IMG/VR virus record: IMGVR_UViG_3300032053_000042
Coordinates: 1-64,000 of that record
Length of the DNA: 64,000 bases
From: a virus
Reading direction: 5' to 3' (one strand)
Shown: one piece after another, positions 5,921 through 24,157 of the stretch
Layout: each line of letters opens with the position of its first letter
Position numbering within the stretch: the stretch's first letter is position 1
The notes under the pieces: generated by a model
Seen by the model: only the letters and a program-made list of their open reading frames with translations
What the model was told of the DNA's origin: nothing
The model's database searches: none
Made by a program: the position numbers and the translations under genes

Positions 5921-6253
5921 ATGACAGAGGATGAGAGTCGCCAGATAAAGGAAAGTCTTGGAGAAATAACCAGGACATTGTCCACAGTTCAACAGGCGGT
6001 CGCGCGATTGGAAAACCAGGTTTCCAATGAGGCTGCGTTATGTCCGTTCCGGGAAGTAATTTCACGGGCTGCCAATAACGGCGCGCGACTGGCGCTTGCG
6101 GAGACGCACGTCGATCATATTGAAGAAAAGATGCACGCTTTAGAACTACAGTTTGCGAAGGCAGGGATCATCTCGGGTGCTGCGGGTGGTGGCGTGTTTA
6201 GCGCGGTCGGGGTGGTTGTGTTCGCTATCGGTAAGGGCGCAGGTTGGTGGTGA
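5921..6253 (+). CDS. Holin-like protein (coiled coil plus C-terminal TM helix)
   Basis: Follows endolysin; heptad-rich N-terminus, hydrophobic C-terminus. Confidence 0.5.
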   Translation: MTEDESRQIKESLGEITRTLSTVQQAVARLENQVSNEAALCPFREVISRAANNGARLALAETHVDHIEEKMHALELQFAKAGIISGAAGGGVFSAVGVVVFAIGKGAGWW

Positions 6254-6316
6254 TATAGGGAGGCAATATGGAAACATTACTCGATCTACGGTCGAACGGA
6301 TGGAGGGTGAAGCGAA

Positions 6317-6571
6317 ATGACACGAAAAGTAGCAGTGGTGGTAGTAGGTGACGTAGACGGTGCCCAGATCAAGTGCACCAAGGCAGGATACGGTCTTATC
6401 GAGGTTACCTGTGACTTACCTGCCGTGGCTCGTGGAGATCGTATCGTTCCGTCGCTTGTTACTCCCTTACAGGGCACCACGAACAACGCAGCACATCCTG
6501 ATTACGTAGTAGGGATTGCTGTAACGGCCAAAGCTGGTGGAGCAAGCGGTCCTGTAATAATTACGGCTTAG
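6317..6571 (+). CDS. Hypothetical protein
   Basis: SD GGAGG; converges on and overlaps the helicase 3' end. Confidence 0.4.
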
Positions 6572-8186
6572 TCCAGCGTAGAAGTTCTTCGCGTAGCGCA
6601 GTTCCTAAGACCGCTTCAGTCATAGCTATCTTACGCTTGAGAATCTTCTCCACCAGGTCGTCGATCGTCCCGGGACAATAAAGGTTCTGGATAAGCACCT
6701 TTCCTGTTTGACCGATTCCATGTACGCGGTCCTCTGCCTGGCTTTGACGAGTAGGATTCCAATGCTTGTCGATGAAGATGACCACCTCTACTCCTGCCTC
6801 TCTTAGGTTGAGGCCTGTGCCAGCTCCTGCAATAGTTCCCAGGAGCACGCGGGCCTCTCCTCGTATCAGACGTTGCCGAGAAGCCTCCGACTCCTCGGCG
6901 GTTAGGCCTCCCCAGATAGTAGTGAAAGGTATACCCAAGCAGTCTAATCTGTTCATTAGGGCCTCAATTGTAGCTCGAAATAACGTAAAGATTATTACTT
7001 TCCCTTTGTAAGTGCTCAGAAAATCCTCAATGTAGCTAAGCTTGATACTTGTATCTTCTAATCCGAACACTCGAGGAGTGCTTAGGATCTGGCGTAATCT
7101 AGTAATCTTGGCCATAGCGCTATCGATTGTAATAATTTCGCCCTCGGGTAGCTCGATTAACATCTCTTTGGCGGCGGTTCTATAAATCCCTGCCTGTTTA
7201 GCTTCCATCTGCAAAGGTATAGTCTGGTATGTCTTTTCAAGTAGCTGGGGATATACATCAGTCTTAAGGCGTCGAATCATCATGGGCGCCAGGTCGCGCC
7301 GTAGTAGAGCCTCGTTTCTTACCCCTAGAACTTCACGACCACCAAAGCCATTCTCGCGATAACGAACGAACAGCTCGTAGAAGCGCCAGTAGGACTTATA
7401 TCGATCGGGATACAGAAGGTGAAGTAGCGCCCACACCTCTGCTGGGTTGTTACCGTAAGGCGTCGCTGTGATGATAAGCTTATGAAAGCTCTTTAGTTTT
7501 TCGGCGGCCTCGTACGTTTGCGTCTGACGATTGCACAGGGTGTGGCCTTCGTCAAATACTGCCCAGTCCCAATTGATCTTGGCTAACTGAGGAACAAGTG
7601 ACAGCTGTCGATAGTTTACAATAAGCCAGCCTCCTTCGAAGTTGGCCATTTGCTTATCTCGAGTCGTTGAGTCTAGTACTGTAACAGGAAGGCGTTCTCT
7701 AGACCATCGATTGTACTCAAGTTCCCACCACAATTTCAACGTGTTCAAGCAAACTACCAGCACTGTTCCATGCCGCTCAGATACCTCTAGGCCTACTATA
7801 GCCTGTAGCGTCTTGCCAAGTCCTGTGTCATCACATAACAAGACGTGGCCTAAGCGATCGATAGCGTTAACTCCGGCTCTCTGAAAAGGTAAAAGCTTGT
7901 CGGTCGCCGGGTGTACTAGCCAGCTATCTTGCTGGGCTAGGATACGCATTCTGGCCATTTCAGGCATCACCGTGTTGTCGTACCAGACTTGGGCCCTTTC
8001 GTCGAACTGCACCTTCATTGACAGAAGCAGTTCGAAGATTCTGGGTTCGGCAGGTAGAGTTACATAGTTGCTCTTCTTAGCTACCCCTTGGACTAGCTGA
8101 AGTACCTTCCAGACTTTAGCTGCCACAGTGCCATCGACAACCAGCTTGGAGGCGCCCTTAGCAGGAGTAATTAGAGTGCCGGTCAT
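6561..8186 (-). CDS. SNF2-family helicase
   Basis: DDTGLGKT (motif I), FDEGH (II), TATP (III), GTGLNL, QAEDRVH (VI); ATGA-coupled start at 8186. Confidence 0.9.
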
Positions 8187-8563
8187 CCTGGATGCCTCCT
8201 TCGATAGGCCTCGGCATGCCTCCACGCATCTTGCACGTGCACGTTACGAATTCGTGGGTTCCTTGGTAGGAATTTGGCGACCGACGCCATCTGCTCAGCA
8301 ATTGGTATTTGAGCTCGTTCAGCAAGATACTTCACAACTCCTATTACCTGCACGCTCGGAAACCAAGAACCAATCTGCGATTGTGCCTTGTGTCGATAAA
8401 GCCTGAAAGCCTCGATAACAATTATATCTGGACGCGTAGTCCAGATAATGTGATCAATCTTCTCCCACAGGTGCACCACTGTGCCAGAGATCTCGTTGGG
8501 CTTAGTGGTGTCGATAAATGCAATCCCTGTGCTTTCACCGGGATCTATGGCCAATATTTTCAT
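8183..8563 (-). CDS. RuvC-like Holliday junction resolvase
   Basis: ILAIDPG..TG, IVIE, HVQDA acidic RNase H-fold motifs. Confidence 0.75.
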   Translation of the reverse strand: MKILAIDPGESTGIAFIDTTKPNEISGTVVHLWEKIDHIIWTTRPDIIVIEAFRLYRHKAQSQIGSWFPSVQVIGVVKYLAERAQIPIAEQMASVAKFLPRNPRIRNVHVQDAWRHAEAYRRRHPG

Positions 8564-8835
8564 GGCAGCGTTACCTTCGTCACTTCGTCTATAGCCAGTT
8601 TGAAGACCGCATACTCACCCATCGGGAACCAATGAACGCCATGTTTAGCTGACTGCCATTCGAAGGTGATGTTTCCACAGCTATCCCACTCGGCTCCGTA
8701 TAATGGTGCGTACTTCTCACGCATTTCGAGGACGCAGGTAAGAAGGGTGTACTGTGGAGAGCTGTACTCTATGTGCTTATAGCCTTCAGCCCGTGCAAAG
8801 ATGTCCTCGAATACTAATCTATATTTTCGTTCCAT
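8560..8835 (-). CDS. Hypothetical protein
   Basis: SD AGGAG; translationally coupled. Confidence 0.5.
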   Translation of the reverse strand: MERKYRLVFEDIFARAEGYKHIEYSSPQYTLLTCVLEMREKYAPLYGAEWDSCGNITFEWQSAKHGVHWFPMGEYAVFKLAIDEVTKVTLP

Positions 8836-8843
8836 ACGCTCCT

Positions 8844-11162
8844 TTACTTTAGCTTAACTAGGTTACCCCAACGACCGCCAATCTCTGCGGACGCCCTGAA
8901 TGGAACTAACGGACCCCAGATCTCAAGGCCAGAGCGTGCCATAATAGCTACGCCCTCTCGAGCAACCTCTTCGATATGCTCTGTAGGGGCTTCTAGGAGA
9001 ATAGAGTCGTGCACCGTGAGAAGAATGTGTGCTCTACCAGCGAGCTCACGATGAATAGCTATCAACGATCTCAAGGTGGTATCCGAAGCGCCCGACTGAC
9101 ATAGAAAATTGATTGCTTGTCTTTCCACCTCTAAAATGATATCGTCTGTTCTTAATGGAAAGCGCCTGCGTCGACCAGTCTTGGATTCCACATAACCCTG
9201 TGCACGTACCAACCTCTTGATACTCTCGGTCCATCTCACTACTCCAGGAATACGTTCGAAGTACCGTGTAATAAACTCCTCGGCTACCCGCTGCGAGAGG
9301 CCTGGTAGGTTAACATCCTTGGCAAGAGCTCGAGCTGTTCTACCGTACGGCAGGCCGAAGTTTACGGTTTTCGCGAAAAACCTTTGTCTTGATGTGTAGT
9401 TAGGACCAAAGAGCTCTACAGACGTTTCATTGTGTAGATCTCGATCTCCCTGGTACACCTCTACAAGAAATGGATCTTCAGATAATGTAGCAAGCACACG
9501 TAGCTCAGCTTGGCTGAAGTCAAGATATGCTAACGACATTCCTTCGCTGGCTATATATAGGTTCCTAATCTGACTACCGTACGGGTCGCCTTCATCAGAT
9601 GGAAGGTTCTGTAAATTCGGGTCCCTTGACGATAGTCTACCTGTGACAGTGCTGAATAACATGAAGTTCGTATGTAATCTACCACTCGGATCCACACGCC
9701 GCTGTGCACCCTCGATGTAAGTTCCTAAGAGCTTCGACAAGTGACGGTGCTTGACTAAAGCTTTTAGTACGGGCTGGTCGAATCTCGTTGCCAGGATAGC
9801 TAGAGCATCCTTATCAGTAGAACGCCCTTCTATCGTGGGAAGACCAAGAATGTCAAACAGATAAGTAGCTACTTGTCTTGTCGACGCCGGATTGATACGA
9901 TAGCCAACGACCTTCTCTATCTGGCTCTCTAGCTGAACAAGCTCCATGTTCCACTGTTTAGCGGTAGCTTCGGCTCGTTCTAGGTCGATCCGAATACCTC
10001 GTACTGCAACGTCGGCTAGGGCGGTAGAACCAGGTACAAGAAGCTCCTTGACTAGTCGAAGCTGTGCTGGAGCTTTACTAAGACGCTTCACCATCAGGTC
10101 AGTTAGCCTTCGTGTGTACCAACCGTCAAAGGCAGCGTATTTGTATAGAACGCCCTTAGGTAACAAGGCGTATGAGTCTGTCTTCGGCTTGGTTAGGTAC
10201 TTCGTTATATCCGCTTCCCAGTCCGGGGCGTCAAATAGTCTAGCACAGAGTAGCTTTAGATCGTTCGTACCTCGCTCGTCGAGAGCATAGTGAGCGAGCT
10301 GAGTATCAAAAGAGAACACAATGTCGACACCCAACTGTGCCTTAAGAAAAGCACGATCGAACTTGGATCCATGCCCGACCCACTTAACCTTGCAGGCCTG
10401 AAGAGCTTGCGCGAATTCAGGAGTGTAGATCACCTCTTGCTGAATCACGAAGATACTCTCCACAGTACCCACCACTACGCACAAAATCTTGTCCTGGCCG
10501 TAGCGAAAGCCTGAAGTCTCGAGATCTAGAATTGCATAAGGGCTTCGTTCTGCTGCCGCAAAGGCCTTAGCAAAGTCCATAGTAGCCTCTGCCTGTGGAC
10601 GCTCTTCTGCCTTTGCCTCTGCCTCAGCCTCACCGGAGACTTCTCGAGCAGCCTTTTGTAAGTCGGCTGTGAAGTCTGGGTACAGATCAGCGCCACGAAG
10701 GATAGCAGCTGGATGATACGTAGGTAAGACCTTTGTACCGAGTTCAGCTGAGTCGACGATCTTGCCGCGTCTTACTGAGATCCCTGTGATAGCGCCACCA
10801 AGGAGGGCATGAGTAGGAATGTTGCCTAAGGTCACGACGATCTTAGGCGCCTTTGCCTTGATCTCTGCCACTAGACGATCCCGACAGCACAGTGACGCAG
10901 CTTCTTTCATAGCCACGTCTGGTACGTAGCATAGACATGCATTAGTGATCCAGGCAGTGCTGGCCAGCTGGTAGGCATCCAGACAACGTCGTAGAAGCTC
11001 GCCGCTACGTCCAATAAAGACCTTGTTAAGGCGAACTTCATCGTGTCCCGGAGCCTCGCCTACAAAGACTATCGAAGCAGTTCCACTAGGACCACGAGGT
11101 GGAACTAGTGCATACGTTTTGAGAGGACACGAATCACATTTAGCGAGAGGTACTTTCTCCAT
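8844..11162 (-). CDS. DNA polymerase A with N-terminal family-4 uracil-DNA-glycosylase-like domain and 3'-5' exonuclease (SPO1-type architecture)
   Basis: CxxC, GEAPG, FIGRSG, HPA (UDG4); DLETSG, KFD, YAAFD (exo); DFSQAELR, KTVNFGLPYG, VHDS (pol motifs A/B/C). Confidence 0.92.
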   Translation of the reverse strand: MEKVPLAKCDSCPLKTYALVPPRGPSGTASIVFVGEAPGHDEVRLNKVFIGRSGELLRRCLDAYQLASTAWITNACLCYVPDVAMKEAASLCCRDRLVAEIKAKAPKIVVTLGNIPTHALLGGAITGISVRRGKIVDSAELGTKVLPTYHPAAILRGADLYPDFTADLQKAAREVSGEAEAEAKAEERPQAEATMDFAKAFAAAERSPYAILDLETSGFRYGQDKILCVVVGTVESIFVIQQEVIYTPEFAQALQACKVKWVGHGSKFDRAFLKAQLGVDIVFSFDTQLAHYALDERGTNDLKLLCARLFDAPDWEADITKYLTKPKTDSYALLPKGVLYKYAAFDGWYTRRLTDLMVKRLSKAPAQLRLVKELLVPGSTALADVAVRGIRIDLERAEATAKQWNMELVQLESQIEKVVGYRINPASTRQVATYLFDILGLPTIEGRSTDKDALAILATRFDQPVLKALVKHRHLSKLLGTYIEGAQRRVDPSGRLHTNFMLFSTVTGRLSSRDPNLQNLPSDEGDPYGSQIRNLYIASEGMSLAYLDFSQAELRVLATLSEDPFLVEVYQGDRDLHNETSVELFGPNYTSRQRFFAKTVNFGLPYGRTARALAKDVNLPGLSQRVAEEFITRYFERIPGVVRWTESIKRLVRAQGYVESKTGRRRRFPLRTDDIILEVERQAINFLCQSGASDTTLRSLIAIHRELAGRAHILLTVHDSILLEAPTEHIEEVAREGVAIMARSGLEIWGPLVPFRASAEIGGRWGNLVKLK

Positions 11163-11171
11163 TAGATCCTC

Positions 11172-11303
11172 CTATTGTAGCTTGAATATGTGTAGGAAGG
11201 CGTAGACAATTGCGGTAATGACACTCAAGAACACTATCATTATCGCCGTAACGATGATCATGTCAGCACAGAATCTCGCAGCCTCGAGAAGTCGTTTACG
11301 CAT
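11172..11303 (-). CDS. Small single-TM membrane protein (43 aa)
   Basis: MRKRLLEAARFCADMIIVTAIMIVFLSVITAIVYAFLHIFKLQ; GGAGGAG SD; fills the gap between genes. Confidence 0.45.
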   Translation of the reverse strand: MRKRLLEAARFCADMIIVTAIMIVFLSVITAIVYAFLHIFKLQ

Positions 11304-12182
11304 CTACTCCTCCTCGGTCGTCAACTGTACCACGTCTTGCTCGTCCTCTCGTAGCGTATGACCGATTCTACCAACGCAGAAGTCCTTGTACTGATCGATG
11401 TTCCACTGGATAACCGGATTCATTTGCACAGGCGTGAGGAAGTCAGCGTGGCGATGTCCCGCTACAGGAGGCGATACTGGCTCCGTCAGGCGTGGACTGT
11501 AAGTTCCTTGAATACCCCAACGTACTGGCAAGCCTGTATCCATCGAGCGTACGTAGGTTCGTGGCTGTACATACCAACCCTGCGAATACTCGTGACATTG
11601 ACAGCGAGTACTAAGCCCATAAGCTTCTCGCAGGTCCCGCCAGCAGCCCAGCATGTGGTATTGTCGATTGGGATCAATGAAGCCCATGTCTTCCAGCGAG
11701 TCTAGCAGACCAACGCGGCCGCCTTGGAATAAGTCCGAATCGAACATGGAGACACCAATGATATTAACTTCTGGTACTTGTAACAACCTTAAGTAACACA
11801 TCATCCAGTCTGCCACGTTAGATCCGTGTGGTACGGCTATAAGCTTAAAGTTAGGGGAGACAATCATCAAATGCTGGTATGCATCGAGACCTTTCACCGT
11901 AGCTTCATAGGAAGCCTGACCATCTCCTAGCACGTCTGGAAGGATAAACTCCTTAGCGTCCACCATCCCAGCTGCTATCGCGACCATAGAAACTGGTAAG
12001 CTTTTACCTTGTTCGACCACACCGTTATCCACACCAACGAGGACTCCTTGCCAGCTCTGTTGTTGGTAGAACTCTCGATACGCTTCGGACTCGAGAATGA
12101 GATGACTCAGGACAAGATGGTAGTTACCCTGTGCAGCGCATTGGTCTAGTAAGCTGATAGGTGAAGCAATTCCGCAAAGCAT
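11304..12182 (-). CDS. TGT-fold protein, DpdA-like deazaguanine transglycosylase candidate
   Basis: Ordered motifs VDNG..E, LPDVLGD, AVPHG, YHMLG, RSMDT match the TGT/DpdA barrel pattern; clustered with folE/queD/queE. Confidence 0.6.
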   Translation of the reverse strand: MLCGIASPISLLDQCAAQGNYHLVLSHLILESEAYREFYQQQSWQGVLVGVDNGVVEQGKSLPVSMVAIAAGMVDAKEFILPDVLGDGQASYEATVKGLDAYQHLMIVSPNFKLIAVPHGSNVADWMMCYLRLLQVPEVNIIGVSMFDSDLFQGGRVGLLDSLEDMGFIDPNRQYHMLGCWRDLREAYGLSTRCQCHEYSQGWYVQPRTYVRSMDTGLPVRWGIQGTYSPRLTEPVSPPVAGHRHADFLTPVQMNPVIQWNIDQYKDFCVGRIGHTLREDEQDVVQLTTEEE

Positions 12183-12183
12183 G

Positions 12184-12528
12184 TTATTCTCCTTCCTTCA
12201 GATCAGGCATATATATCGCACCACACATACCGTCTTCCGAGACTCTAGCTCCTGTGCAAGTCAGGTCAAGATCTAGTGCATACTCATACAAGAACTTAGC
12301 CATAGTCTCGCAGCTAGAGCCCTCATTGGCGTCCAAGAAGCTCATCAGCTGCTGTCTACACTGCTCTGCGAGTTCGAGGAACTCAATCTCTCTGTCGTTA
12401 ACCACGACGATGTTTACCAAGAACACGAACTCATGCATATGAAGCTTCGACAGATATAGGTACTTCTCAGGAGCGGAGGCCCACCTGTGGAAGCCTATCC
12501 ACTTTCCAACGACTTGTAGGATGATCAT
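12184..12528 (-). CDS. QueD-paralogue T-fold protein (DpdL-like)
   Basis: GFHRW..AP..YL..LHMHEF...DREIEF...SCE.MA...VSED; ATGA-coupled start at 12528 with GGAGG SD. Confidence 0.65.
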   Translation of the reverse strand: MIILQVVGKWIGFHRWASAPEKYLYLSKLHMHEFVFLVNIVVVNDREIEFLELAEQCRQQLMSFLDANEGSSCETMAKFLYEYALDLDLTCTGARVSEDGMCGAIYMPDLKEGE

Positions 12529-12866
12529 TTCGGTCCCTCCGTCTCCAGGCGGTGCTCCTCTTGACGACGATAGGCCCACATCATTGCGCAATAGTTCATG
12601 ATATCCAGCAGTTCGTCGTCGATCTTTTCCTCGAGGCCAAAGTACTGAAGCTCGGTAGCCTCTTTACGCTGGAGCATAGAAACTAGCCGAGCGCACTTAT
12701 GAAAGATCATAGTAATAAAGGACTTCTCACCAAAGCACATCTTCTCCCAGGGAAACATAGCTGCATCGCGTACTACAGAACGATTCGATACGATCTTGTG
12801 CGCCTCTTCCAAAGCCCTGTCGAAGTTAATCCAGAACATGTCCAGATCTTGTTGTCGCTTACTCAT
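12525..12866 (-). CDS. DUF1599/NMAD1-like all-alpha nucleotide-modification-associated protein
   Basis: K.ARL....D.LLDIMNY pattern; helical; adjacent to modification genes. Confidence 0.6.
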   Translation of the reverse strand: MSKRQQDLDMFWINFDRALEEAHKIVSNRSVVRDAAMFPWEKMCFGEKSFITMIFHKCARLVSMLQRKEATELQYFGLEEKIDDELLDIMNYCAMMWAYRRQEEHRLETEGPK

Positions 12867-12886
12867 GTTTCTCCTTTCTACTGTAT

Positions 12887-13369
12887 CTACTCATACCAAC
12901 GCATTAACCACTGGTCCGGAGTACGATCGCCTTTATGATGATTACACATCCAACAGGCTGCTACTAAATTACTTGCTGTCGTGTCACCTCCTAACACTAG
13001 TGGCACTACGTGATCGATCACTCTGTAGAATCGTGCGCTGTCTTTAAGGAAAAGTCGACCACAGTAGAAGCACTTGCGCTTTCGAAGTAACTCGCCTAGC
13101 TCTTCTCGAGTTAACTTCATTACTCGGTTAGCTTGTTTAGTTCGGTACACGAGCCCACTCCATATGGTAGTCACTTTCCCTGTAGGAGTCGCACGATACT
13201 TTTTACCTTTGCTAGCAACCGCTTCAGCTGCTACGCACTTCTTACAAAGGGTCTGCTTCCTATCTTCCGCTATTTCAGAAGGTCCAAAGTCAAGCCTCAT
13301 CAACTTCTTCTGACAGCGAGGACATATCTTAGATAGATACTCATCCTTCCAAGATCGCTTACATGGCAT
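12887..13369 (-). CDS. HNH endonuclease with N-terminal Zn-binding motifs
   Basis: CFYCG...IDHVVP...GG....NLVAACWMCN..K. Confidence 0.88.
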   Translation of the reverse strand: MPCKRSWKDEYLSKICPRCQKKLMRLDFGPSEIAEDRKQTLCKKCVAAEAVASKGKKYRATPTGKVTTIWSGLVYRTKQANRVMKLTREELGELLRKRKCFYCGRLFLKDSARFYRVIDHVVPLVLGGDTTASNLVAACWMCNHHKGDRTPDQWLMRWYE

Positions 13370-15245
13370 CTAACCAACTCCTTCCTGTAGCTGCGTGCAC
13401 CTTCAAAGGCGCGTCCAACTTATAAGGGCTCACCATAGCTTCAGAGACTAGCTTTGTAGTCGCTTCAACCTCGTCCACAGGTACCTCGAGTAATAGCTCA
13501 TCATGAACTTGTAGAACCATACGACTATGCAGACCCGAACGCTGTAGCTCTCGATCTACAGTAATCATCGCTATTTTCATAATGTCTGCAGCCATTCCTT
13601 GGATCGGCATATTTATGGCCGCTCGCTCTGCCGAGCGACGTAGACCGGGAGGCGTATTAGAGCTCGGTAACAGCTCAGGAAAATAGCGCTTACGCCCGAG
13701 CAACGTTTGCACATATCCATGAGCCCGAGCGTACTGCACTGTGTTACGAAAGTAATCTCGTACTCGAACAAAGCGTGAGAAGTAAGCCTCAATGAATTGT
13801 CTTGCCTCCTGTACGCTTCGTTCTGTACGTTCTGCTAGTCCTTGCTCGGAGATACCGTACATAAGCCCGAAATATATTCGCTTCGCTAGGGTACGCTGTG
13901 CATAAGTCACCTCCTTGAGTGGGATGTTAAAGAGCTCCGATGCGGTACTAGTATGTACGTCAACTCCTGCAGCAAAGGCAGCTAGTAACTTAGGATCCTG
14001 CGTGATGTGCGCCAAAATACGTGGCTCTATTTGCGTATAATCACAACTCAGTAGTACGTGACCTTCTGGTGCTATAAACGCACCTCTGATTCTACGGCCT
14101 AAGTCTGTGCGCGTTGGTACCTGCTGCAAGTTCGGATGGCTCGATGAAAGCCTTCCGGTACGAGTACCAGTCTGATTTAGTGAAGTATGTACACGCCCTG
14201 TGCTAGGATTAACTAGTAAGGGTAGAGCGTCGATGTAGGTAGTCATCAACTTGGATAGCTGGCGCTGTTCCAGGATAGGTCCAATGATCGAATGCTTACC
14301 CTTTAGGAATGTCAGGACTCGGATACTCGTCGAGAAGTCGCCACGATATCCCGACAGACCTAGCTCACCAAAGAGCACCTTACCTAACTGCACAGGTGAG
14401 TTGATATTAAACTTATGGCCAGCTATTTGATGGATCTGTTCTTCGGTGTTCTTTAGCTCCTGTCTCAATTCTACTCCCATCGTTCGTAGATAGGGCTGAT
14501 CAATAATCATCCCATACGTCTCCATACGCTTGAGGACCTGTATTAGAGGCATCTCTATCTCATTGAACAGTCTACGTTCTGGCTCCTGCTCGACTAGAGG
14601 TTGGAGTGCCTGCATCAAGCGTAAGGTCATATCGACATCGGCGCAGGCGTAGCGAGCTACTCTAGTGGTACTAATCAGATCCATACCATAGCCAGGACCT
14701 AGAAGCTCGTCGATCGATGTCATTGTACACCCCAGGCGTCGAAGAGCCTGGTCCTTCAGGCCTAGGTGATGTGCTACTGACTCGACCAGCCATGCAGCGA
14801 TCATAGTATCGAACACAGGCCCTCCTAGAGGTAGGCCATGTCTTTCGAGAATTTTCATGTCGAACTTGATATTGTGTCCGACCTTACCGATGCCCTCACT
14901 AGCTAGTACAGGCCCAAGACGAGCCTGTACTAGCTCAAGGGAAAGTTGCTGACCAAGATGTATCAGCGTACTGTGCCCGACTGGTAGATAGAACGCAGTC
15001 CCTGGCTCGCGCGATAGGGAGATGCCAACTAGCTTATCGATCATGGCATTAGTACCTGTGGTTTCGGTGTCTACAGCTAGCCCCTGTGCTCCACGTAAGT
15101 ACTCGAGTAGCTGGTCCAAGGCTTGCTCAGTGTCTACTATTTGGTAGGCACCAAACCCTCGGATGTCGCTTACGTCGTTGGGCCACAAGGGCAGCTGGAT
15201 ATAGCCCTGGCGAGACATCTTAAGCTTATTAGGTCGCTTGGCCAT
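13359..15245 (-). CDS. polA: Second DNA polymerase A (Klenow-like: 3'-5' exo plus polymerase, no 5' nuclease)
   Basis: AVDTETT, GHNIKFD, YACAD; TGRLSSSHPNLQ, DYTQIEPR, KRIYFGLMYG, AERAAINMPIQG, QVHDELL. Confidence 0.92.
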   Translation of the reverse strand: MAKRPNKLKMSRQGYIQLPLWPNDVSDIRGFGAYQIVDTEQALDQLLEYLRGAQGLAVDTETTGTNAMIDKLVGISLSREPGTAFYLPVGHSTLIHLGQQLSLELVQARLGPVLASEGIGKVGHNIKFDMKILERHGLPLGGPVFDTMIAAWLVESVAHHLGLKDQALRRLGCTMTSIDELLGPGYGMDLISTTRVARYACADVDMTLRLMQALQPLVEQEPERRLFNEIEMPLIQVLKRMETYGMIIDQPYLRTMGVELRQELKNTEEQIHQIAGHKFNINSPVQLGKVLFGELGLSGYRGDFSTSIRVLTFLKGKHSIIGPILEQRQLSKLMTTYIDALPLLVNPSTGRVHTSLNQTGTRTGRLSSSHPNLQQVPTRTDLGRRIRGAFIAPEGHVLLSCDYTQIEPRILAHITQDPKLLAAFAAGVDVHTSTASELFNIPLKEVTYAQRTLAKRIYFGLMYGISEQGLAERTERSVQEARQFIEAYFSRFVRVRDYFRNTVQYARAHGYVQTLLGRKRYFPELLPSSNTPPGLRRSAERAAINMPIQGMAADIMKIAMITVDRELQRSGLHSRMVLQVHDELLLEVPVDEVEATTKLVSEAMVSPYKLDAPLKVHAATGRSWLDAM

Positions 15246-15246
15246 G

Positions 15247-15570
15247 TTATCGCTCCACATCCGGAACGTAGACTAGATGGCCCTTCGACATATCTATTAG
15301 GACGCTACGCGCTGGCCAGCCGTATATGAGAATAGCATAGTCACCTTCAATACCATCGACTCCGCCAAACCCTTCATCTAGTACTTGGTATGAAACACCC
15401 TCCGGAGCAGATAGAATTATCCTTCCTTCGCTCTCTGTAGGAGGTGTAGTCGTAACGTGCACTATTCTTCGTTCAGGCCACTTGACTGGCTTACAGCTAT
15501 CTCCTGGGCGAGGGCTAACATGAATGACTCCTGGCAGTTCGTGTAAATACTTATTAAGAGCGTCGCTCAT
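15247..15570 (-). CDS. Hypothetical protein
   Basis: SD GGAGG; fills the operon gap. Confidence 0.5.
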   Translation of the reverse strand: MSDALNKYLHELPGVIHVSPRPGDSCKPVKWPERRIVHVTTTPPTESEGRIILSAPEGVSYQVLDEGFGGVDGIEGDYAILIYGWPARSVLIDMSKGHLVYVPDVER

Positions 15571-15573
15571 TCG

Positions 15574-16185
15574 CTACCTCCGTAGGCTGGACTGATGAAC
15601 GAGACTCATGAACTCGTTACGAACTGCTACCTTTGAGAAGCACCCACGAAAGCCACTAGTGACTGTGAGATGCCCTGGACGCTCCACTCCACGAATGGCC
15701 ATGCACATGTGCTCAGCTTCGATCATTACTCCTACGCCATGCGGATGTAGCTGCTCCCACATAAACGTCGCGATCTTAGATGTTAGATCCTCTTGTATGG
15801 ATAGTCGATGGGCGTAGTGGTCTACAATACGAACTATCTTACTGATACCGCACACCGATAGCCACGGTAGATAGCCTACATGAGCATAGCCTACGTACGG
15901 TAGGCAGTGGTGTGCACATATCGACGCGAACTGGATATGAGTGACAGTTACCATTCCTGGGTCGTCACCGCGTCCTACCGGGAATACTGTAAAGTCGATG
16001 GGTTCCTGCTGCTTGGATAGGAACTCGATCATAGCGTCCGCAGCTCGCACTGCTGTGTTTTTGCCACTGGGACCGCTACACATAGCGGGAATCTCTTCAA
16101 TCTTGTATCCCAGAGCGTAGAGAAAGTCCTCGTAGGCCTTAATAGCTGCACCACGAGCGATACCGAGCGTTGGTTTGATTGTCAT
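15574..16185 (-). CDS. folE: GTP cyclohydrolase I
   Basis: SICAHHCLP, G.AHVGY, GISKIVR, QEDLT, HMCMAIRGV. Confidence 0.93.
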   Translation of the reverse strand: MTIKPTLGIARGAAIKAYEDFLYALGYKIEEIPAMCSGPSGKNTAVRAADAMIEFLSKQQEPIDFTVFPVGRGDDPGMVTVTHIQFASICAHHCLPYVGYAHVGYLPWLSVCGISKIVRIVDHYAHRLSIQEDLTSKIATFMWEQLHPHGVGVMIEAEHMCMAIRGVERPGHLTVTSGFRGCFSKVAVRNEFMSLVHQSSLRR

Positions 16186-16655
16186 AAGTATAGCTCCTGT
16201 GGTACATCGACCTCCACCCAACAGTCAGGGGTCTCCGATATTCGTACCATTACAAGTCGAACTGGATGGTAGACTTGCATCCTTGCCCTTAGCATGGTGA
16301 TAATCTCCTTAGCCATATTCTCAGCCGTTGGTGACTGAGAATGAAACTCGATGCAGTCGTTTAACAACTTATGATCGTAGTGAGCCTTTACCACCTCGAA
16401 GAGCCCCTTTAGTACACTGAAGTCTATAACCATTCCGTTCTTCAGAGGCCCTGCGACGCATACTTCGATAATGTAGTTGTGTCCATGCACGTTCCCGCAA
16501 TGTGGATGACCTGGCAAAAAGTGTGCACAGCTGATAACGAAGCGCCTCCATACTCGTACCTCAGAAGCCTTTGTGTACCTTACTTCTTCCTGTTGCATCA
16601 TAAGTGTTCCCAGCGAGATTGGTGTCTTTGAAGTCGACTCTGATACTTGTTCCAT
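16182..16655 (-). CDS. queD: 6-carboxytetrahydropterin synthase
   Basis: AHFL...C.NVHGHNY, GMVIDF, DHK.LN, PTAENMA, ETP. Confidence 0.92.
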   Translation of the reverse strand: MEQVSESTSKTPISLGTLMMQQEEVRYTKASEVRVWRRFVISCAHFLPGHPHCGNVHGHNYIIEVCVAGPLKNGMVIDFSVLKGLFEVVKAHYDHKLLNDCIEFHSQSPTAENMAKEIITMLRARMQVYHPVRLVMVRISETPDCWVEVDVPQELYL

Positions 16656-16667
16656 GTTTCTCCTTTC

Positions 16668-17294
16668 CTACCTTATTCCAATGAACTTATGTAACTGGAC
16701 GCTCAAACGCCAGTTCTTCTTGATACACTCCTCGTAGCACAGCTTAGTAGCCGAGGAATCTTGGCTCTCGGGCTGCAAGCAGATCGTTGCGTGTCCACGA
16801 AGAATGTGCTGGAGGTGGTCAATAAGAAACTGATTTACCAGGTCGAGATCCTCCTGAAAGCCTACGACAAACTTCAGCTCATCCGCCGTAAGTAAATTCG
16901 GGATAAGTATCCTGTTCCCGCCAGGAACATTAAGCTTAGGCGAGATGCAAACCCAGTCTATCCCACGAGGAATGGGAAGAGTACCGTTCGTTTCCAGAGC
17001 GGTGTTCCTCCCGATTGCATTTAGCTCGCTACACAGCTCGTCGAGAGGTTGCATGGTTGGCTCTCCTCCCGTGATCATCACCCACTGGATACCTGGAAAC
17101 TCTTTAACCTTCTCCACGATGGTTTCCACGTCCATTGCTACTCCACCCTTAGACCAAGTATACTTGGTATCGCAGAAACTACAGGTCAAGTTACACCCTT
17201 GCATTCGTATGATAACCATAGGAATGCCTGTATTACACCCCTCTCCCTGGACGGCACTGTAAATCTCGTTAATCTGATAGTAGAAACTAGGCAT
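16668..17294 (-). CDS. queE: 7-carboxy-7-deazaguanine synthase (radical SAM)
   Basis: QGEG, GCNLTCSFCDT, ITGGEP, ETNG, SPK, RLSVQLHK. Confidence 0.94.
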   Translation of the reverse strand: MPSFYYQINEIYSAVQGEGCNTGIPMVIIRMQGCNLTCSFCDTKYTWSKGGVAMDVETIVEKVKEFPGIQWVMITGGEPTMQPLDELCSELNAIGRNTALETNGTLPIPRGIDWVCISPKLNVPGGNRILIPNLLTADELKFVVGFQEDLDLVNQFLIDHLQHILRGHATICLQPESQDSSATKLCYEECIKKNWRLSVQLHKFIGIR

Positions 17295-17308
17295 GTTCCT
17301 CCTTTACT

Positions 17309-19792
17309 TCACTGGACGTCTAATGTAATCTCACTGAAAGGGCGTAACCTCTTCGGAACATCTAAGCCCTCAAGCTCGGCCTGCTCTACCTTCACTCCTA
17401 CGCATCGCTGAGTACGTGATCCCGTGCCGATGTATTGCTCTGGCATTATGTAGGAGCCTTGAAGTTCTCGAAGCTGCGATCGCACGGCTTGAATTTGCAA
17501 CAGTATACGCCCCTCTCTTCGGCGTTTAGCAGCCCACCATCCCCATGCGCCAGTTAGGTGGAACCATAAAATGTTCTGCTGTACGTCGTAGTACAGGAAG
17601 TATGCTGGCATTGGTGGAATCTGGCTGGCATAGGCGACCACGTCCTCGATAAAGTCGTCGACCAGGATTCGGGTACGTCCTGAAGTCGAGCTCACTAAGG
17701 TCCGCTCAAGGATATGTTTCCACGTCTCGCCTAAAACTTCCATCTGTGTTCCATTATACTCCATTGCGTGCGCGTTATACATCTTCAGGCCACACAGGAC
17801 CACAGCTAGGTTACGTCGTATTCTATCAGGCATCGACATTGGTAGCAGCATCTGAAGATCAGCAAGAGCTGTATCGAACATCAACTTCACCGAGCTCGAG
17901 GTCTCCCGAAGAGTTCGCTGGATATAGCGACCTGCAAAGTCTACAAGGCGTAGACGCGTCAAGGCTAGGAAGGCCTTATACGTTGCACTACCCTCCTGAC
18001 AAGGACCTAAGCTCATATTCACTACCACAGAGCGCTCTCGTATTGCAGGATCGCTAAAGGCGTCCTCTCCATCCACACTAAAAGGAGCGTCAAGATCGTA
18101 GCTTTGTGTCGTCTGATCAGGCCTACCACGAGAGTCTCGACCTACGTCATAAGCGCGTCGTGCTACATCTAGGAACTCTTCTTGGCCGTGAGCTGCTGTA
18201 TCTCTGAACTCCCCGAAGGAGATAGGTACAGCATTCGTACTAGCCATCATTGACAGCAGCACGAACATCCGTGTCTTCGACGGGTAAGCTCTTGGCTCCT
18301 TCCAGCCTACGAGAGGCTGTAGAACTCGTAACAAGGTACTTGACTTTCCACTACCTTGTGTTCCATAGACGTTAAGGATAGGAAACCTCTCTCCAGCTTC
18401 CTGCAGAAGCCCTTTAATCGGTGCAGCGAAGAACCATCCTACCATAGGTGCTATTACTTCCAGGTAGTTGATCTGTGGAAGGAGCTCGGTTATGGCCTTT
18501 ACAAGCTTTCTATACTCATCTGCTGGTGGAAAGGTATATACTACACTAGGAGTCTCTCTACCGCTGGAGAGAAAGACATATGGAGCTTCGTCACTAGGAT
18601 ACACAGTCTCCGCATCGAACACGCATTCGGGAGCGACCCATAGGTTCTCGTGCCGTCCTATGACTGATACTCCATGTGCGTGTGGTAAGCCAATATCATA
18701 TAGCTGATCCATAAGATGAGGTAGCCAAGCTTTTACCTCTCGATCGCTAGCTAGCCACTGCCACGAAGCTACGTGCAGATGCCTTCCTAACGCGTTTACA
18801 CTATTGAACGCCGACTTAGGAAGCGCTACGCCTGACCATGTAAAGTTATGTGAGGTGATGTCACCCAAGATCTGATCCTCGCTATCGTTGCCGTCGACCT
18901 TAATCAGCTTACGTGGCTTGAAGATAAAGGTTGCGACCTTCATAACTCCCTTGGAGGTCTTGTAGCATAGCTCTCCATCCTGCTCTATGAAGTCTGCCAC
19001 TGCAGCTACCTTTGGTTTCTGTAGTCGTGCAGACTCAATTGTACGGTCTAGGTACTGGTCTCCTCCACGCTCTGTATATCGATCTCCTACAGGTAATATC
19101 TGAAACAGGGTGTGGATACCGCTCTCAGAGACACTCACATGTAGGAACTCCTTTACTGCCCAGAAGTCCCTCTCGCTGCGAGACTTAAATCCTTGATTGC
19201 CGCCTTGCCAAAGCTTCTTAACTACGAGCTTGGATAGCGTCGTCAGAGCCAACACATCCGAGGCCTTGTAGATAGCTCTCTCGTTCGTAGACTTCATTGT
19301 CACAGGTACTGGGTGTTCAGGGACCTTATAGTTAGTAGTACCAGGCACCCGTAGTATCCACTTTGCGTTGTAAGTCCTTCCGCCTGCTCCAGCTCCGTGC
19401 GCCTGCCATAAGGCTCTCATTAGTTCGCCAGCTCTCTCGGAGTCAACAGGTTCAATCAAGTTCCAGTATAAGTGATATCCGTGCCCACTCGCTACCTGAT
19501 AAGTAAATGGAACAGGTGGACTTCCGCACAGCTTGTCTAGCTCGCCCTCAGGAAAGTCCTTTGAGTCCAGGTCTAGCCACACCACGGGAACCCTGGTAAC
19601 TTTTTCTACGTCCGTTAAGGCTCTTGGCGCCACACCGAAGTACGCATCGCCCTTTTCCTCGTTCATTGAAGCTGCAATAGCTAAGGCTTCCGGTACGCTT
19701 CGGGCCAGCCTACGCCTGTGAGGGGTAGGCGAGAAGACGAGAATCCCTTCCTCAGCTGTTAGGTCGCTGAAGATCGCTTCCAACAGTCCCAT
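17309..19792 (-). CDS. Primase (RepB-like) fused to P-loop helicase/ATPase
   Basis: WLDLD, SGHGYHLYW, LRVPGTTNYK; Walker A GTQGSGKS. Confidence 0.8.
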   Translation of the reverse strand: MGLLEAIFSDLTAEEGILVFSPTPHRRRLARSVPEALAIAASMNEEKGDAYFGVAPRALTDVEKVTRVPVVWLDLDSKDFPEGELDKLCGSPPVPFTYQVASGHGYHLYWNLIEPVDSERAGELMRALWQAHGAGAGGRTYNAKWILRVPGTTNYKVPEHPVPVTMKSTNERAIYKASDVLALTTLSKLVVKKLWQGGNQGFKSRSERDFWAVKEFLHVSVSESGIHTLFQILPVGDRYTERGGDQYLDRTIESARLQKPKVAAVADFIEQDGELCYKTSKGVMKVATFIFKPRKLIKVDGNDSEDQILGDITSHNFTWSGVALPKSAFNSVNALGRHLHVASWQWLASDREVKAWLPHLMDQLYDIGLPHAHGVSVIGRHENLWVAPECVFDAETVYPSDEAPYVFLSSGRETPSVVYTFPPADEYRKLVKAITELLPQINYLEVIAPMVGWFFAAPIKGLLQEAGERFPILNVYGTQGSGKSSTLLRVLQPLVGWKEPRAYPSKTRMFVLLSMMASTNAVPISFGEFRDTAAHGQEEFLDVARRAYDVGRDSRGRPDQTTQSYDLDAPFSVDGEDAFSDPAIRERSVVVNMSLGPCQEGSATYKAFLALTRLRLVDFAGRYIQRTLRETSSSVKLMFDTALADLQMLLPMSMPDRIRRNLAVVLCGLKMYNAHAMEYNGTQMEVLGETWKHILERTLVSSTSGRTRILVDDFIEDVVAYASQIPPMPAYFLYYDVQQNILWFHLTGAWGWWAAKRRREGRILLQIQAVRSQLRELQGSYIMPEQYIGTGSRTQRCVGVKVEQAELEGLDVPKRLRPFSEITLDVQ

Positions 19793-19794
19793 AG

Positions 19795-20721
19795 CTACGC
19801 CAACGTTCGAAGTCGCTGGTTGATACGCTCACAGAGTTCTAGGTTGGTCTGTGTTACTTGAGCTGTATAAACCCATGCCGCAAGTCGAGCTGCCTTGCTA
19901 TGAACGATATCCAGCTTCAGGACGTCTCCGTCTAGCTCTGAGCAATCAGTCTCTATCATAACTATAGGAGCGTTTCCATCCTCTTCGAATCGCTCTGGAG
20001 GTAGCTCAGCCTTAGGAGTCATCCAGGCGACGCAGCTCTCCCTCGTCCTAGGATTGGTCATCCATGAAGTATCCGGTAGTGGTAGGCTGAGCGCCTCCTC
20101 TACCGTCATCATACGATCGCCGTGCATAGGCGGTGACCATACGTTCTTTTTGCCGCTCCCAGCAGTCCAGCCCAGATAGGTTTCCTGGATCGCCTTCAGA
20201 TAGACCTGGCCTGTTAAGCGTGCATCCTGTGCTACGTATTTCAATACGCGCTTTTGTTCCTCGAGGCTTTTACGCCATAGAATAGGAGCCATGGCTCCGC
20301 TCAGGCCTCCTAGCTTTCCTCCTAGATCAGCGCCCTTAGCGGCGGCATCTAGGCCGATCATAAAGCCTTTAGTACACAACATTAGGAACGCTGGGTCGAT
20401 GCTGTGCAAAGCCAGACTTCTACAGTCGTCGAAGAGTCCACTCTCTTGAGCTAGGATAGGCCAGTCGAAACCTGTACCGTTCCAGGTAACGATGATGTCG
20501 CCTAGATGCCAGCGCTCCAGTAGTAGGTTAACGAGCGCAACGGCTCCGAACTTCTCAATCTGTAGTGCGTGCATCCCTCCTTCTTCTAGAGGCTCACCAT
20601 ATGTTACTGTAGCTGCTCCACGTTCGGAGCTCCACAGAGCGGCGCAGATGATATGAGTGCCCGACAGATCAGTTGTAGCCTCGCACGACGTTTCAATGTC
20701 AAAGCCTATGACGTTTGGCAT
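19795..20721 (-). CDS. DEDD/RNase H-like 3'-5' exonuclease
   Basis: FDIET, WNGTGFD, YVAQD. Confidence 0.75.
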   Translation of the reverse strand: MPNVIGFDIETSCEATTDLSGTHIICAALWSSERGAATVTYGEPLEEGGMHALQIEKFGAVALVNLLLERWHLGDIIVTWNGTGFDWPILAQESGLFDDCRSLALHSIDPAFLMLCTKGFMIGLDAAAKGADLGGKLGGLSGAMAPILWRKSLEEQKRVLKYVAQDARLTGQVYLKAIQETYLGWTAGSGKKNVWSPPMHGDRMMTVEEALSLPLPDTSWMTNPRTRESCVAWMTPKAELPPERFEEDGNAPIVMIETDCSELDGDVLKLDIVHSKAARLAAWVYTAQVTQTNLELCERINQRLRTLA

Positions 20722-23754: not shown

Positions 23755-23776
23755 AGCCCTCCTTTCACTACCACTA

Positions 23777-24157
23777 CTAGTTAATCTCTCCTAGTGCACA
23801 TCCGTCTTTGCCTAAACCAACCTCTTGAGCTGCAGCTGGCCATAGATCCACGTAGCCACTGATCCCGTTGGCTAGTCTATCTACCACAGTAACAGTCACC
23901 TCACGACGAGCCTGAATGTCGCCATTGCACTCGTGCAGCACAGTGATGTGTAGGACGGTGCCTAGCGGAACGTCATTCGAGGCGGCTCCAAGATACTCGT
24001 AGTTCACTACTTCTGGTGCACCTACTGGCGTTACCCTGTGCCAGCTCGCTGCGTGGCGTCTCCAGGTGAATTCGTCATCGATACCATAAGTTGTAACGGT
24101 CACAGGCACAGATGCAATATGTAGCGCCAACAGTAGCGCAATAAGACTTGAAGGCAT
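23777..24157 (-). CDS. Secreted RlpA-like double-psi beta-barrel protein
   Basis: Signal peptide; AA...PLGT.L.I...V.VVDR...DL...A. Confidence 0.55.
   Translation of the reverse strand: MPSSLIALLLALHIASVPVTVTTYGIDDEFTWRRHAASWHRVTPVGAPEVVNYEYLGAASNDVPLGTVLHITVLHECNGDIQARREVTVTVVDRLANGISGYVDLWPAAAQEVGLGKDGCALGEIN

Follow-up and report, generated by a model that had tools for sequence, protein, structure and literature searches.

The window analysed here, a 64,000-nucleotide stretch of DNA from an uncultured sediment phage, encodes two complete family A DNA polymerases on its minus strand, PolA-1 and PolA-2. We estimate at about 55% the probability that PolA-1 is the replicase and that PolA-2 is a captured, trimmed, and pocket-altered Chloroflexota-type Pol I serving as an accessory polymerase, probably not as a polymerase for 7-deaza-dGTP. 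The features of the locus are as follows:

8844–11162, minus strand: PolA-1, candidate family 4 UDG, DEDD 3'–5' exonuclease, and family A polymerase, 772 aa (Pfam, NCBIfam)
11172–11303, minus strand: hydrophobic ORF of 43 aa, single transmembrane-like, between the DpdA-like gene and PolA-1 (ORF list, translation)
11304–12182, minus strand: DpdA-like candidate DNA guanine transglycosylase, 292 aa (AF2 model, Foldseek)
12184–12591, minus strand: DpdL-like T-fold protein, candidate 7-carboxy-7-deazaguanine decarboxylase (motif; PHROG 17812, function unknown)
12525–12866, minus strand: weakly DUF1599-like protein (nucleotide modification associated domain 1), 113 aa (PF07659, E 9e-4; 20 bits against a cut-off of 25)
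12887–13369, minus strand: free-standing HNH endonuclease (Pfam HNH_5 6.8e-13, HNH 4.7e-10)
13359–15245, minus strand: PolA-2, Klenow-like 3'–5' exonuclease and family A polymerase, 628 aa (Pfam, Klenow alignment, tree)
15574–16221, minus strand: FolE (Pfam, PHROGs)
16182–16655, minus strand: QueD, carrying CGNVHGH (Pfam, PHROGs)
16668–17294, minus strand: QueE (Pfam, PHROGs)

The original prediction had claimed two polymerases carrying motifs A, B, and C and Exo I–III, and this was borne out: both ORFs are present, they share only 29% identity when aligned, and their exonuclease and polymerase catalytic residues, read off alignments, are complete. Family A membership was judged by a full-length profile match together with the motif A Asp, the motif B R-x3-K-x3-F/Y-G-x2-Y-G, and the motif C His-Asp; against PF00476 (cut-off 34.3 bits), PolA-1 scored 290.6 bits and PolA-2 468.2 bits. 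The DEDD 3'–5' proofreading exonuclease (PF01612), recognized by Exo I D-x-E, Exo II D, and Exo III Y-x3-D, is likewise found in PolA-1 (DLET/KFD/YAAFD) and in PolA-2 (DTET/KFD/YACADVD). The genes announced between the two polymerases (HNH, DUF1599-like, DpdL-like, DpdA-like, and the small hydrophobic ORF) were all recovered. Assembly chimerism, named at the outset as the way in which this picture could fail, is ruled out by contigs from two other sediment samples that bridge the two genes, one spanning 8765–13559 (along with overlapping pieces) and the other, of 4,013 bp, running across 10975–14794. The closest non-phage homologues of PolA-2 are indeed cellular, as a chimera of phage and Chloroflexota DNA would predict, but PolA-1, the intervening genes, and PolA-2 are joined in contigs of other samples and studies, PolA-2 lacks a 5' nuclease domain, overlaps a phage gene at either end, and is phage-like in composition, and three more short phage-type copies of it exist. 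We thus rejected this candidate, which the bridging contigs leave vanishingly improbable.

In PolA-1, Pfam detected UDG (9.5e-21), DNA_pol_A_exo1 (1e-14), and DNA_pol_A (2.2e-86), with the motifs LDLET, SKFD, YAAFD, DFSQAE, and RFFAKTVNFGLPYG, followed by a motif C, VHDS, in which Ser replaces Glu as the second acidic residue. This HDS is kept across the whole PolA-1 clade, in whose alignment GEAPG, HPAA, the Cys residues, Exo I–III, and motifs A and B are also conserved. Family 4 UDGs are defined by a motif A GE(A/G)PG, a motif B HP(S/A), a uracil-pocket Asn, and four Cys for a 4Fe-4S cluster; the corresponding region of PolA-1 carries GEAPG, ITNA, HPAA, and a CxxC with two more conserved Cys (putative Fe-S cluster ligands), and scores 74.8 bits against Pfam UDG (cut-off 24.3) and 85.5 against TIGR00758, under the cut-off of 125.3. 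A PolA-1-type enzyme is the sole PolA of three complete relatives (G003, G004, and G015) and the only one in the majority of some 160 related loci, and its neighbors, encoding a primase, the DpdA-like protein, a RuvC-like protein, and SNF2, are conserved and unchanged. By sequence comparison, we take PolA-1 to be the polymerase ancestral to a large phage family, in which it is probably the replicative enzyme.

PolA-2 starts at an ATG at 15245 behind a GGAG ribosome-binding site, in agreement with the database gene call (P0063), while the longest ORF extends to 15260. Pfam detected its exonuclease (4.3e-25) and DNA_pol_A (2.6e-140) domains, with Exo I DTET, Exo II NIKFD, Exo III YACADVD, motif A DYTQIE, motif B RxxxKxxxFGxxYG, and motif C QVHDE. 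It is bacterial-like and devoid of a 5' nuclease, as had been predicted: the Klenow fragment aligns with it end to end, and a FEN or 5' nuclease domain, including 5_3_exonuc_N, was not found anywhere in the phage genome. A bacterial Pol I equivalog is full length, bears an N-terminal 5'–3' nuclease (PF02739/PF01367), and scores above the curated cut-off; PolA-2 matches only positions 296–888 of the model and stays below the thresholds (665.5 versus 720 and 587.2 versus 600, NCBIfam NF004397 / TIGR00593). The phylogeny proposed as a check in the original prediction places PolA-1 in a phage family and PolA-2 among Chloroflexota-type cellular Pol I. PolA-2 and its three phage relatives (P0064, P0065, and P0066, at 96%, 78%, and 66% identity) form a clade (SH-aLRT 100) lying inside a 99-supported group of full-length, 5'-nuclease-bearing Pol I whose recorded sources are Anaerolineae or Chloroflexota, and which is itself surrounded by a wider Chloroflexota assemblage. 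Since PolA-2 nests within these enzymes, to which it is about 58% identical, it would derive from a cellular Pol I that was captured and shed the 5' nuclease, an origin that the original prediction had missed. Its composition is fully ameliorated to the phage (GC 0.498; RSCU correlation with phage genes 0.76, versus 0.71 for PolA-1).

All catalytic residues of PolA-2 are kept across phage copies that are only 62–78% identical to one another, with exonuclease motifs intact in four out of four. Of 95 positions invariant in cellular Pol I, all four copies retain 88 and are changed at five, namely N678Q, I679V, S707T, L711P, and N761Y (E. coli numbering). These clade-wide substitutions all fall in motif 2, motif A, or motif B, at sites that are 97–100% invariant among 104 cellular Pol I, and would suggest an altered substrate handling rather than plain Pol I housekeeping. 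N678Q and L711P also occur in unrelated phage replicative PolAs (L003, L009, L010, and L015), a recurrence from which it follows that PolA-2 may have shifted toward a replicative role.

Whether relatives keep both polymerases receives a mixed answer. PolA-2 is kept, with its remodeled pocket, in at least four diverged phages, but most relatives have a single PolA. The absence of the second PolA from cluster-bearing relatives, the observation against which the original prediction had staked itself, is found in at least eight phages that retain FolE, QueE, and the DpdA-like gene (G007, G008, G009, and G010–G014), one of which, G009, is 95% complete; a 75%-identical relative, P0004, may also lack PolA-2, to judge by the length of its 47-kb contig. 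In two protein searches of a phage collection, more than one PolA place was present in no more than about 5 to 11 of the best 5,000 matching records, some of which will be split genes. Yet two PolAs also occur in another lineage of this phage family (L028/L029/L106/L257–L263, hereafter the L028 lineage), where in the tree they are tandem UDG-PolA sister paralogues (support 95, 38% identity), so that its second enzyme was gained independently, by tandem duplication. The extra copy has degenerate UDG motifs (GEFPS, VTTK, HPIQ), whereas its sister keeps them, and it sits directly after the DpdA-like gene in a QueC-QueD-QueE-FolE phage. The two lineages thereby differ in predicted modification, QueC-less with a DpdL-like gene here and QueC-containing there.

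FolE, QueD, and QueE (15574–17294) are predicted to synthesize 7-carboxy-7-deazaguanine, and QueC was not found in the 76-kb record. A DpdA is expected to fold into a TGT-type TIM barrel with catalytic Asp residues and to be encoded in genomes that also carry preQ0/CDG synthesis genes. The 292-aa protein had no match in Pfam (including TGT), NCBIfam, or PADLOC, but its AF2 model (pLDDT 90) best matches tRNA-guanine transglycosylases in Foldseek, with DpdA 7ui4 among the top matches (E about 1e-5, TM about 0.5), and its gene adjoins PolA-1, near FolE/QueE, in 35 relatives' loci. This fold implies a post-replicative base exchange, and every known 7-deazaguanine modification of DNA is introduced by DpdA once the DNA has been replicated (PMC10516641). 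DpdL is characterized by a QueD-like T-fold in which LxxxHRHxF replaces CxxxHGH, in a phage with DpdA, FolE, QueD, and QueE and without QueC. This genomic setting is the one seen here, and the 135-aa ORF, whose true start is likely an internal MIILQ, carries LSKLHMHEF, with Met where the signature LxxxH(R)HxF has Arg (PMC10516641). The DpdL-like segment is swapped or diverged among otherwise near-identical strains. The HNH gene, whose start overlaps the PolA-2 stop codon, has a homologue (31%) adjoining the PolA of the relative L018.

From a mechanistic perspective, the phage family would always have used the UDG4-exo-PolA as its own replicase, and an Anaerolineae-type Chloroflexota Pol I, probably of the host lineage, would have been captured in the recent ancestry of the small PolA-2 clade. 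Its 5' nuclease domain would then have been trimmed off and its composition adapted to the phage, purifying selection holding the enzyme while five normally invariant residues, predicted to surround the incoming nucleotide and nascent base-pair pocket, changed. The accessory role, which we infer from domain content, would most likely be that of a glycosylase-free polymerase, taking on synthesis for which the UDG-armed replicase is poorly suited or which would otherwise fall to host Pol I. Such tasks could be the filling of gaps as Okazaki fragments mature, recombination-dependent synthesis, or the repair of patches left by uracil excision or by an abortive base exchange. The degenerate UDG of the extra L028 paralogue counts for such a UDG-free second enzyme; against the proposal, PolA-2 without a 5' nuclease could not remove primers unaided by nick translation. 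In both known dual-PolA lineages a deazaguanine cluster is present and the extra polymerase adjoins the DpdA-like gene, an arrangement that may reflect a link to the modification.

A division of labor between the two PolAs, as originally predicted, is plausible in its general form, in view of two intact enzymes, the retention of PolA-2 in at least four phages, and the second dual-PolA lineage. The dedication of one enzyme to 7-deazaguanine nucleotides or templates is not supported, given the DpdA fold and the single-PolA relatives. PolA-2 would in that case insert 7-deaza-dGTP ahead of the DpdA step or serve to copy templates with heavy modification, and its position inside the cluster (FolE on one side, the DpdL-like and DpdA-like genes on the other), its five clade-wide pocket substitutions, and the similar placement of the extra L028 polymerase all agree with it. 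Pol I enzymes of the usual kind, Taq and Klenow for example, however, already accept 7-deaza-dGTP and templates containing 7-deazaguanine, the scanned replication-module ORFs include no recognizable nucleotide kinase, dGTPase, or like dNTP-level enzyme, the modifications predicted for the two dual-PolA lineages are not alike, and at least eight cluster-bearing relatives, the 95%-complete G009 included, manage with one PolA. The DpdA-like, DpdL-like, and FolE-QueD-QueE genes predict a 7-deazaguanine swap into finished DNA, as in all known cases (PMC10516641), so PolA-2 is probably no 7-deaza-dGTP polymerase and we consider this specialization unlikely. We give slightly more credit, while still finding it doubtful, to the view that UDG-replicase phages with predicted DpdA-made 7-deazaguanine DNA repeatedly recruited a glycosylase-free second polymerase beside dpdA as a dedicated arm of the modification system, which would have happened in one case by theft of a host Pol I and in the other through gene duplication. 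Such a synthesis or repair arm would, for example, refill sites damaged in base exchange or copy modified templates, and the five substitutions would tune PolA-2 to that substrate.

It is rather unlikely that the main replicase of this clade is now PolA-2, with PolA-1 kept mainly as a uracil-sensing or repair polymerase. The convergence of N678Q and L711P on residues of unrelated phage replicative PolAs and the tightly packed operon shared with a primase-helicase point that way, but PolA-1 has lost none of the motifs of the polymerase that serves the family alone and still has the same conserved neighbors, and, if P0002 and P0065 share one contig, it is better conserved than PolA-2 between the same pair of relatives (88% versus 78%). 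That PolA-2 is a redundant passenger without a distinct role, having arrived for instance with the adjacent HNH endonuclease, seems more improbable still. The overlap of the free-standing HNH gene with the PolA-2 stop codon, the frequency of HNH genes, inteins, and split genes in the polymerase region of this family, and the absence of a second PolA from most relatives would fit a passenger, but not the complete catalytic residues of such divergent copies, the fully ameliorated composition, or the non-random, clade-wide substitutions at invariant pocket sites in place of scattered decay.

Phages are generally taken to have one replicative polymerase. On our preferred reading, an uncultured sediment phage would keep its own polymerase along with a domesticated host-type Pol I with an altered active-site pocket, whose origin gives a clue to a Chloroflexota/Anaerolineae host. 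The two-polymerase layout, apparently reached twice, by capture and by duplication in a sister lineage, would offer a natural experiment in polymerase sub- or neofunctionalization, and five defined substitutions in a Klenow-like scaffold may be of interest for polymerase engineering (substrate choice, fidelity, speed). The findings also temper the view that a phage with modified bases requires a polymerase dedicated to them.

With regard to known systems, PolA-2 aligns over its full length with the E. coli Klenow fragment (1KFD/1D8Y; E 7.8e-136), all catalytic residues included, and nests among full-length Anaerolineae-type Chloroflexota Pol I (58% identity). It differs from bacterial Pol I in lacking the 5' nuclease domain and in being encoded in a phage replication operon, and from the 104 cellular Pol I in its five substitutions. 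A precedent for a non-canonical-base polymerase is DpoZ, a 2-aminoadenine-specific phage PolA encoded beside base-synthesis genes, in phages that make the modified base as a dNTP. Neither enzyme reaches the DpoZ models (PolA-1 129.9 and PolA-2 182.5 versus 500; 44 and 48 versus 350; NF038380 / NF038381), and, unlike in DpoZ phages, the DpdA-type transglycosylase points to an exchange after replication.

PolA-1 shares its three-domain architecture with the UDG-exo-PolAs of Pseudomonas phage PaBG (gp205, PMC7412058) and of Brevundimonas, Serratia, and SPO1-like Bacillus phages, with 27–31% identity across 88–99% of its length; it departs from them in its motif C, HDS instead of HDE, and in having a second PolA alongside, and its own clade is uncultured and at most 44% identical to the IMG/VR relatives. 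Compared with the dDG-type 7-deazaguanine cluster of Cellulophaga phage phiST (PMC10516641), the cluster of the window, whose modification is predicted, differs by the inserted second polymerase. The closest parallel lies within the same phage family, in the L028 lineage, where a second intact PolA likewise stands beside a DpdA-like gene and a deazaguanine pathway and, like PolA-2, is without an intact UDG; there, the extra enzyme is a duplicated copy accompanied by QueC, whereas here it would stem from the capture of a cellular Pol I.

The window covers 64 kb of an IMG/VR virus record (76,123 bp, CheckV completeness 91%), and a search of the whole record found exactly two PolA genes in it. 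Both lie in a single, tightly packed run of genes on the minus strand. The coordinates and gene list of the original prediction proved correct, as judged from the ORFs, their Pfam domains and, for PolA-2, an ATG at 15245 that is preceded by a GGAG site and opens the 628-aa product of the public gene calls. In the order of the run, the genes are:

17309-19792, minus strand: primase-helicase-like gene
15574-17294, minus strand: QueE, QueD and FolE
between FolE and PolA-2, minus strand: 107-aa ORF
13359-15245, minus strand: PolA-2
next, minus strand: HNH endonuclease, then a weak DUF1599-like ORF
12184-12591, minus strand: DpdL-like ORF (135 aa)
11304-12182, minus strand: DpdA-like ORF (292 aa)
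next, minus strand: 43-aa hydrophobic ORF
8844-11162, minus strand: PolA-1
next, minus strand: 91-aa ORF, RuvC-like ORF and SNF2 helicase

The region has no megablast match among known phages, and single-sequence scans of viral contigs returned no close relative of either polymerase. The 292-aa, 135-aa, 107-aa and 91-aa ORFs match nothing in Pfam, NCBIfam or PADLOC, and ten other early or replication ORFs had no informative Pfam match. The best sigma-70-like match of the region (11239-11266, minus strand; CTGACA, 16-nt spacer, GATAAT, 10/12) falls within the 141 bp that precede PolA-1, inside the 43-aa hydrophobic ORF, and could be an internal PolA-1 promoter, in a promoter and terminator scan that was uninformative overall, with fewer sites than in shuffled controls.

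The phage carries two intact and physically linked polymerases, along with a gene of DpdA fold. PolA-1 (772 aa) combines UDG, DNA_pol_A_exo1 and DNA_pol_A domains; in PolA-2, Pfam finds the exonuclease and polymerase domains only, and the whole Klenow fragment can be aligned to it (E 7.8e-136). The two are 29% identical and hence not the products of a recent duplication. That both are catalytically intact, as had been claimed, is borne out by their motifs. All four known phage copies of PolA-2 keep Exo I (DTET), Exo II (KFD), Exo III (YACADVD), the Asp and steric-gate Glu of motif A, the R/K/F/Y of motif B and the HDE of motif C. In PolA-1, Exo I-III and motifs A and B are intact, and motif C reads VHDS (residues 716-719, window 9006-9017) where HDE is usual. 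Apart from rare cases of Glu or Ala, this Ser is common to the whole UDG-PolA clade, and it is also found where the enzyme is the only polymerase, so that it is a trait of the clade rather than a lesion, and these replicases function without the second acidic residue. The UDG domain of PolA-1 has the family 4 motifs (GEAPG, HPAA, the pocket Asn, and CxxC with two more conserved Cys) and scores below the strict TIGR00758 cut-off.

The pair is not the product of assembly chimerism. We aligned Logan contigs from sediment metagenomes other than the likely source to positions 6000-18000. In one run (X2), a single contig spans 8765-13559 with 5 differences and covers the whole of PolA-1, the genes between and the 3' end of PolA-2; two more contigs of the same run extend to 18000, each overlapping by about 30 bases. 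In another (X4), a single 4,013-bp contig from a diverged strain runs from 10975-12081 through a replaced segment into 12524-13689 and 13982-14794, which links the N-terminus of PolA-1 physically to PolA-2. Besides these bridging contigs, PolA-2 is phage-like in composition, with a GC content of 0.498 against 0.502 for the phage and an RSCU correlation with the phage of 0.76, against 0.71 for PolA-1, and a chimera was rejected on these grounds.

As regards their origin, PolA-1 is, from sequence comparison, the ancestral polymerase of this phage family and normally its sole one. A large protein database holds UDG-exo-PolA relatives at graded identities of 88, 85, 75, 70, 54 and about 44%, and their alignment, used to scan viral and metagenome contigs, yielded 160 loci with a conserved neighbourhood of primase, (DpdA-like gene), PolA, RuvC-like gene and SNF2. 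Whole-record searches found a single PolA in relatives G003 and G004 (terminal repeats, 100% complete), G015 (100%), G009 (95%) and ten more partial records; it is on this pattern and on the shared neighbourhood that the ancestral status of PolA-1 is based. In many relatives (L030, L034, L093, L132, L142, L015), the UDG-PolA gene is split between motifs by inserts of 0.6-1.2 kb, and one 987-aa homologue (P0009) has HNH_3 and Hint_2 domains; the gene seems to be a frequent target of inteins, introns or homing endonucleases. IMG/VR classes the G015 record (locus L032), which has one UDG-PolA, as a provirus; at least some members of the family may be temperate.

PolA-2 is a Chloroflexota-type Pol I that has been captured, truncated, ameliorated and conserved in the phage, with five substitutions in its active-site pocket. 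Its short, phage-type copies P0064, P0065 and P0066 are 96, 78 and 66% identical to it; its other best matches are full-length Pol I of about 917 aa with the 5' nuclease, at 58% identity, from sources labelled Chloroflexi, Anaerolineae or Chloroflexota, and the best named genomes are Anaerolineae and other Chloroflexota. In a tree of 116 sequences, for which the PolA-1 family served as root, the phage copies group together as one clade of four (SH-aLRT 100) nested in a 99-supported group of full-length, 5'-nuclease Pol I, itself within a Chloroflexota assemblage, with Bacteroidota, Pseudomonadota and other phyla elsewhere. On the simplest reading of the tree, a cellular Pol I was captured, lost its 5' nuclease at the domain linker and was then inherited vertically within a small clade of phages, a reading that also points to Chloroflexota as the phage host. 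As for timing, the PolA-1 relatives at 75% and 54% identity lie on contigs of 47,265 and 9,627 bp, both with a DpdA-like gene, and no PolA-2 relative is listed for either contig (matched by bp size only; P0004 is the 47,265-bp one), which hints that the capture is younger than the splits from these relatives.

To characterize the divergence of PolA-2, the four phage copies were compared with 104 cellular Pol I, among which 95 positions are at least 95% conserved. All four copies keep 88 of these, two are changed in one copy only, and five are changed in all four, namely (E. coli numbering, by offset from the Klenow alignment):

N678Q and I679V: PNLQNIP to PNLQQVP
S707T and L711P: DYSQIELR to DYTQIEPR
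N761Y: AKxINFG to AKRIYFG

In the numbering of PolA-2 itself, they are Q380, V381, T409, P413 and Y463. Going by known structures of Klenow, Taq and Bst, these five residues probably line the surroundings of the catalytic Asp, the steric-gate Glu and the O-helix, at the pocket of the incoming nucleotide and nascent base pair. At these sites the canonical residues are retained in PolA-1 and almost all of its relatives. Since Q678 and P711 are found as a pair in unrelated phage PolAs (L003, L009), and P711 without Q678 in others (L010, L015), the changes partly converge on a phage-type active site. Taken as a whole, the changes in PolA-2 resemble directed functional change with constraint maintained, not decay. 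Taq Arg660 (E. coli R755), a residue that contacts N7 and O6 of the incoming G, corresponds to a Thr in PolA-2; this was rejected as a phage-specific change because the nearest cellular relatives already have Ala or Ser.

PolA-2 may have some link to the modification system; the original prediction had given, as one example of a division of labour, one of the two enzymes handling 7-deazaguanine nucleotides or templates. Among the genes between the polymerases, the 292-aa protein, which has no profile match, gives a confident model (pLDDT 90) with structural matches to tRNA-guanine transglycosylases, the DNA preQ0 insertase DpdA (7ui4) among them, and its homologues adjoin PolA in many relatives, with FolE and QueE close by. 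In the 135-aa ORF, a candidate DpdL, the motif LSKLHMHEF is compatible with the signature of that protein, and the gene set of the window (FolE, QueD and QueE present, QueC absent) agrees with the DpdL criteria of PMC10516641; the whole 76-kb record has no QueC and no Pfam-detectable TGT. The DpdL-like ORF is also a hotspot of strain variation (window 12081-12524), where the X4 strain, otherwise about 95% identical, has 442 bases swapped for 468 others, and where the ORF of contig L098 is only 60% identical between neighbours at 96-100%. The predicted chemistry would run from GTP to CDG, decarboxylation to 7-deazaguanine and exchange into finished DNA. According to PMC10516641, all viruses known to have 7-deazaguanine bases encode a DpdA, and insertion is post-replicative; the predicted pathway creates no need for a polymerase using modified dNTPs. 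Moreover, most relatives with the modification cluster have one PolA: FolE, QueE and the DpdA-like gene accompany a single polymerase in G009 (95% complete), G007, G008 and G010-G014, an absence of the second enzyme that the original prediction had itself named as refuting, and that speaks against a second polymerase required by the modification. That relatives keep both enzymes holds, as far as seen, for the window's small clade, with its four known PolA-2 copies, and fails across the wider family; within the clade, P0002 (PolA-1 type) and P0065 (PolA-2 type) both have a longest contig of 24,752 bp, a match in length that suggests their co-residence, and the longest contig of P0066 is 19,341 bp.

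A count of how many separate motif A regions each locus contains brought out another dual-PolA lineage (L028/L107, L029, L106, L257-L263; at least seven contigs, 82-100% identity). Its gene order is QueC-QueD-QueE-FolE, PD-(D/E)XK and AAA_24 genes, a DpdA-like gene and two full-length UDG-exo-PolA in tandem (L029:6794-12274). The paralogues are 38% identical and sisters in the family tree (support 95), consistent with an old tandem duplication, and both keep intact polymerase and exonuclease motifs. The upstream copy, adjoining the DpdA-like gene, has a degenerate UDG (GEFPS for GEAPG, VTTK for ITNA, HPIQ for HPAA). Two lineages of one phage family have thus arrived, by different routes, at the same layout beside dpdA: an intact UDG-polymerase accompanied by another polymerase that has no working UDG. 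As there are just two such independent lineages, and deazaguanine clusters occur in roughly a quarter of related loci, the association with these clusters is suggestive but not statistically meaningful.

Alternatively, PolA-2 may be shifting towards the main replicative role. We rather infer an accessory enzyme without glycosylase, which would do the synthesis for which the UDG-armed replicase is ill suited, or which the phage would otherwise leave to host Pol I. The replication module (19795-20721 and 22702-25221) also encodes an RNase H-fold/PolB-exo-like protein (308 aa), an ATP-dependent DNA ligase (350 aa) and a PD-(D/E)XK nuclease (354 aa), which with a gap-filling polymerase would make up a self-contained repair/maturation set. 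No FEN-type 5' nuclease is found in the whole record, and primer removal must depend on another nuclease or on the host.

Compared with known systems, each polymerase belongs to a known family, and both the deazaguanine cluster and the UDG-exo-PolA architecture are already in the literature, the latter in cultured phages such as PaBG. Two complete PolAs in a single phage were not described anywhere in the searchable literature, whose limited coverage makes this no proof of absence. The features that seem new are the presence of an ancestral phage PolA beside a domesticated host Pol I in one phage, the defined remodelling of the captured enzyme's pocket, and the convergent two-polymerase solution of a sister lineage.
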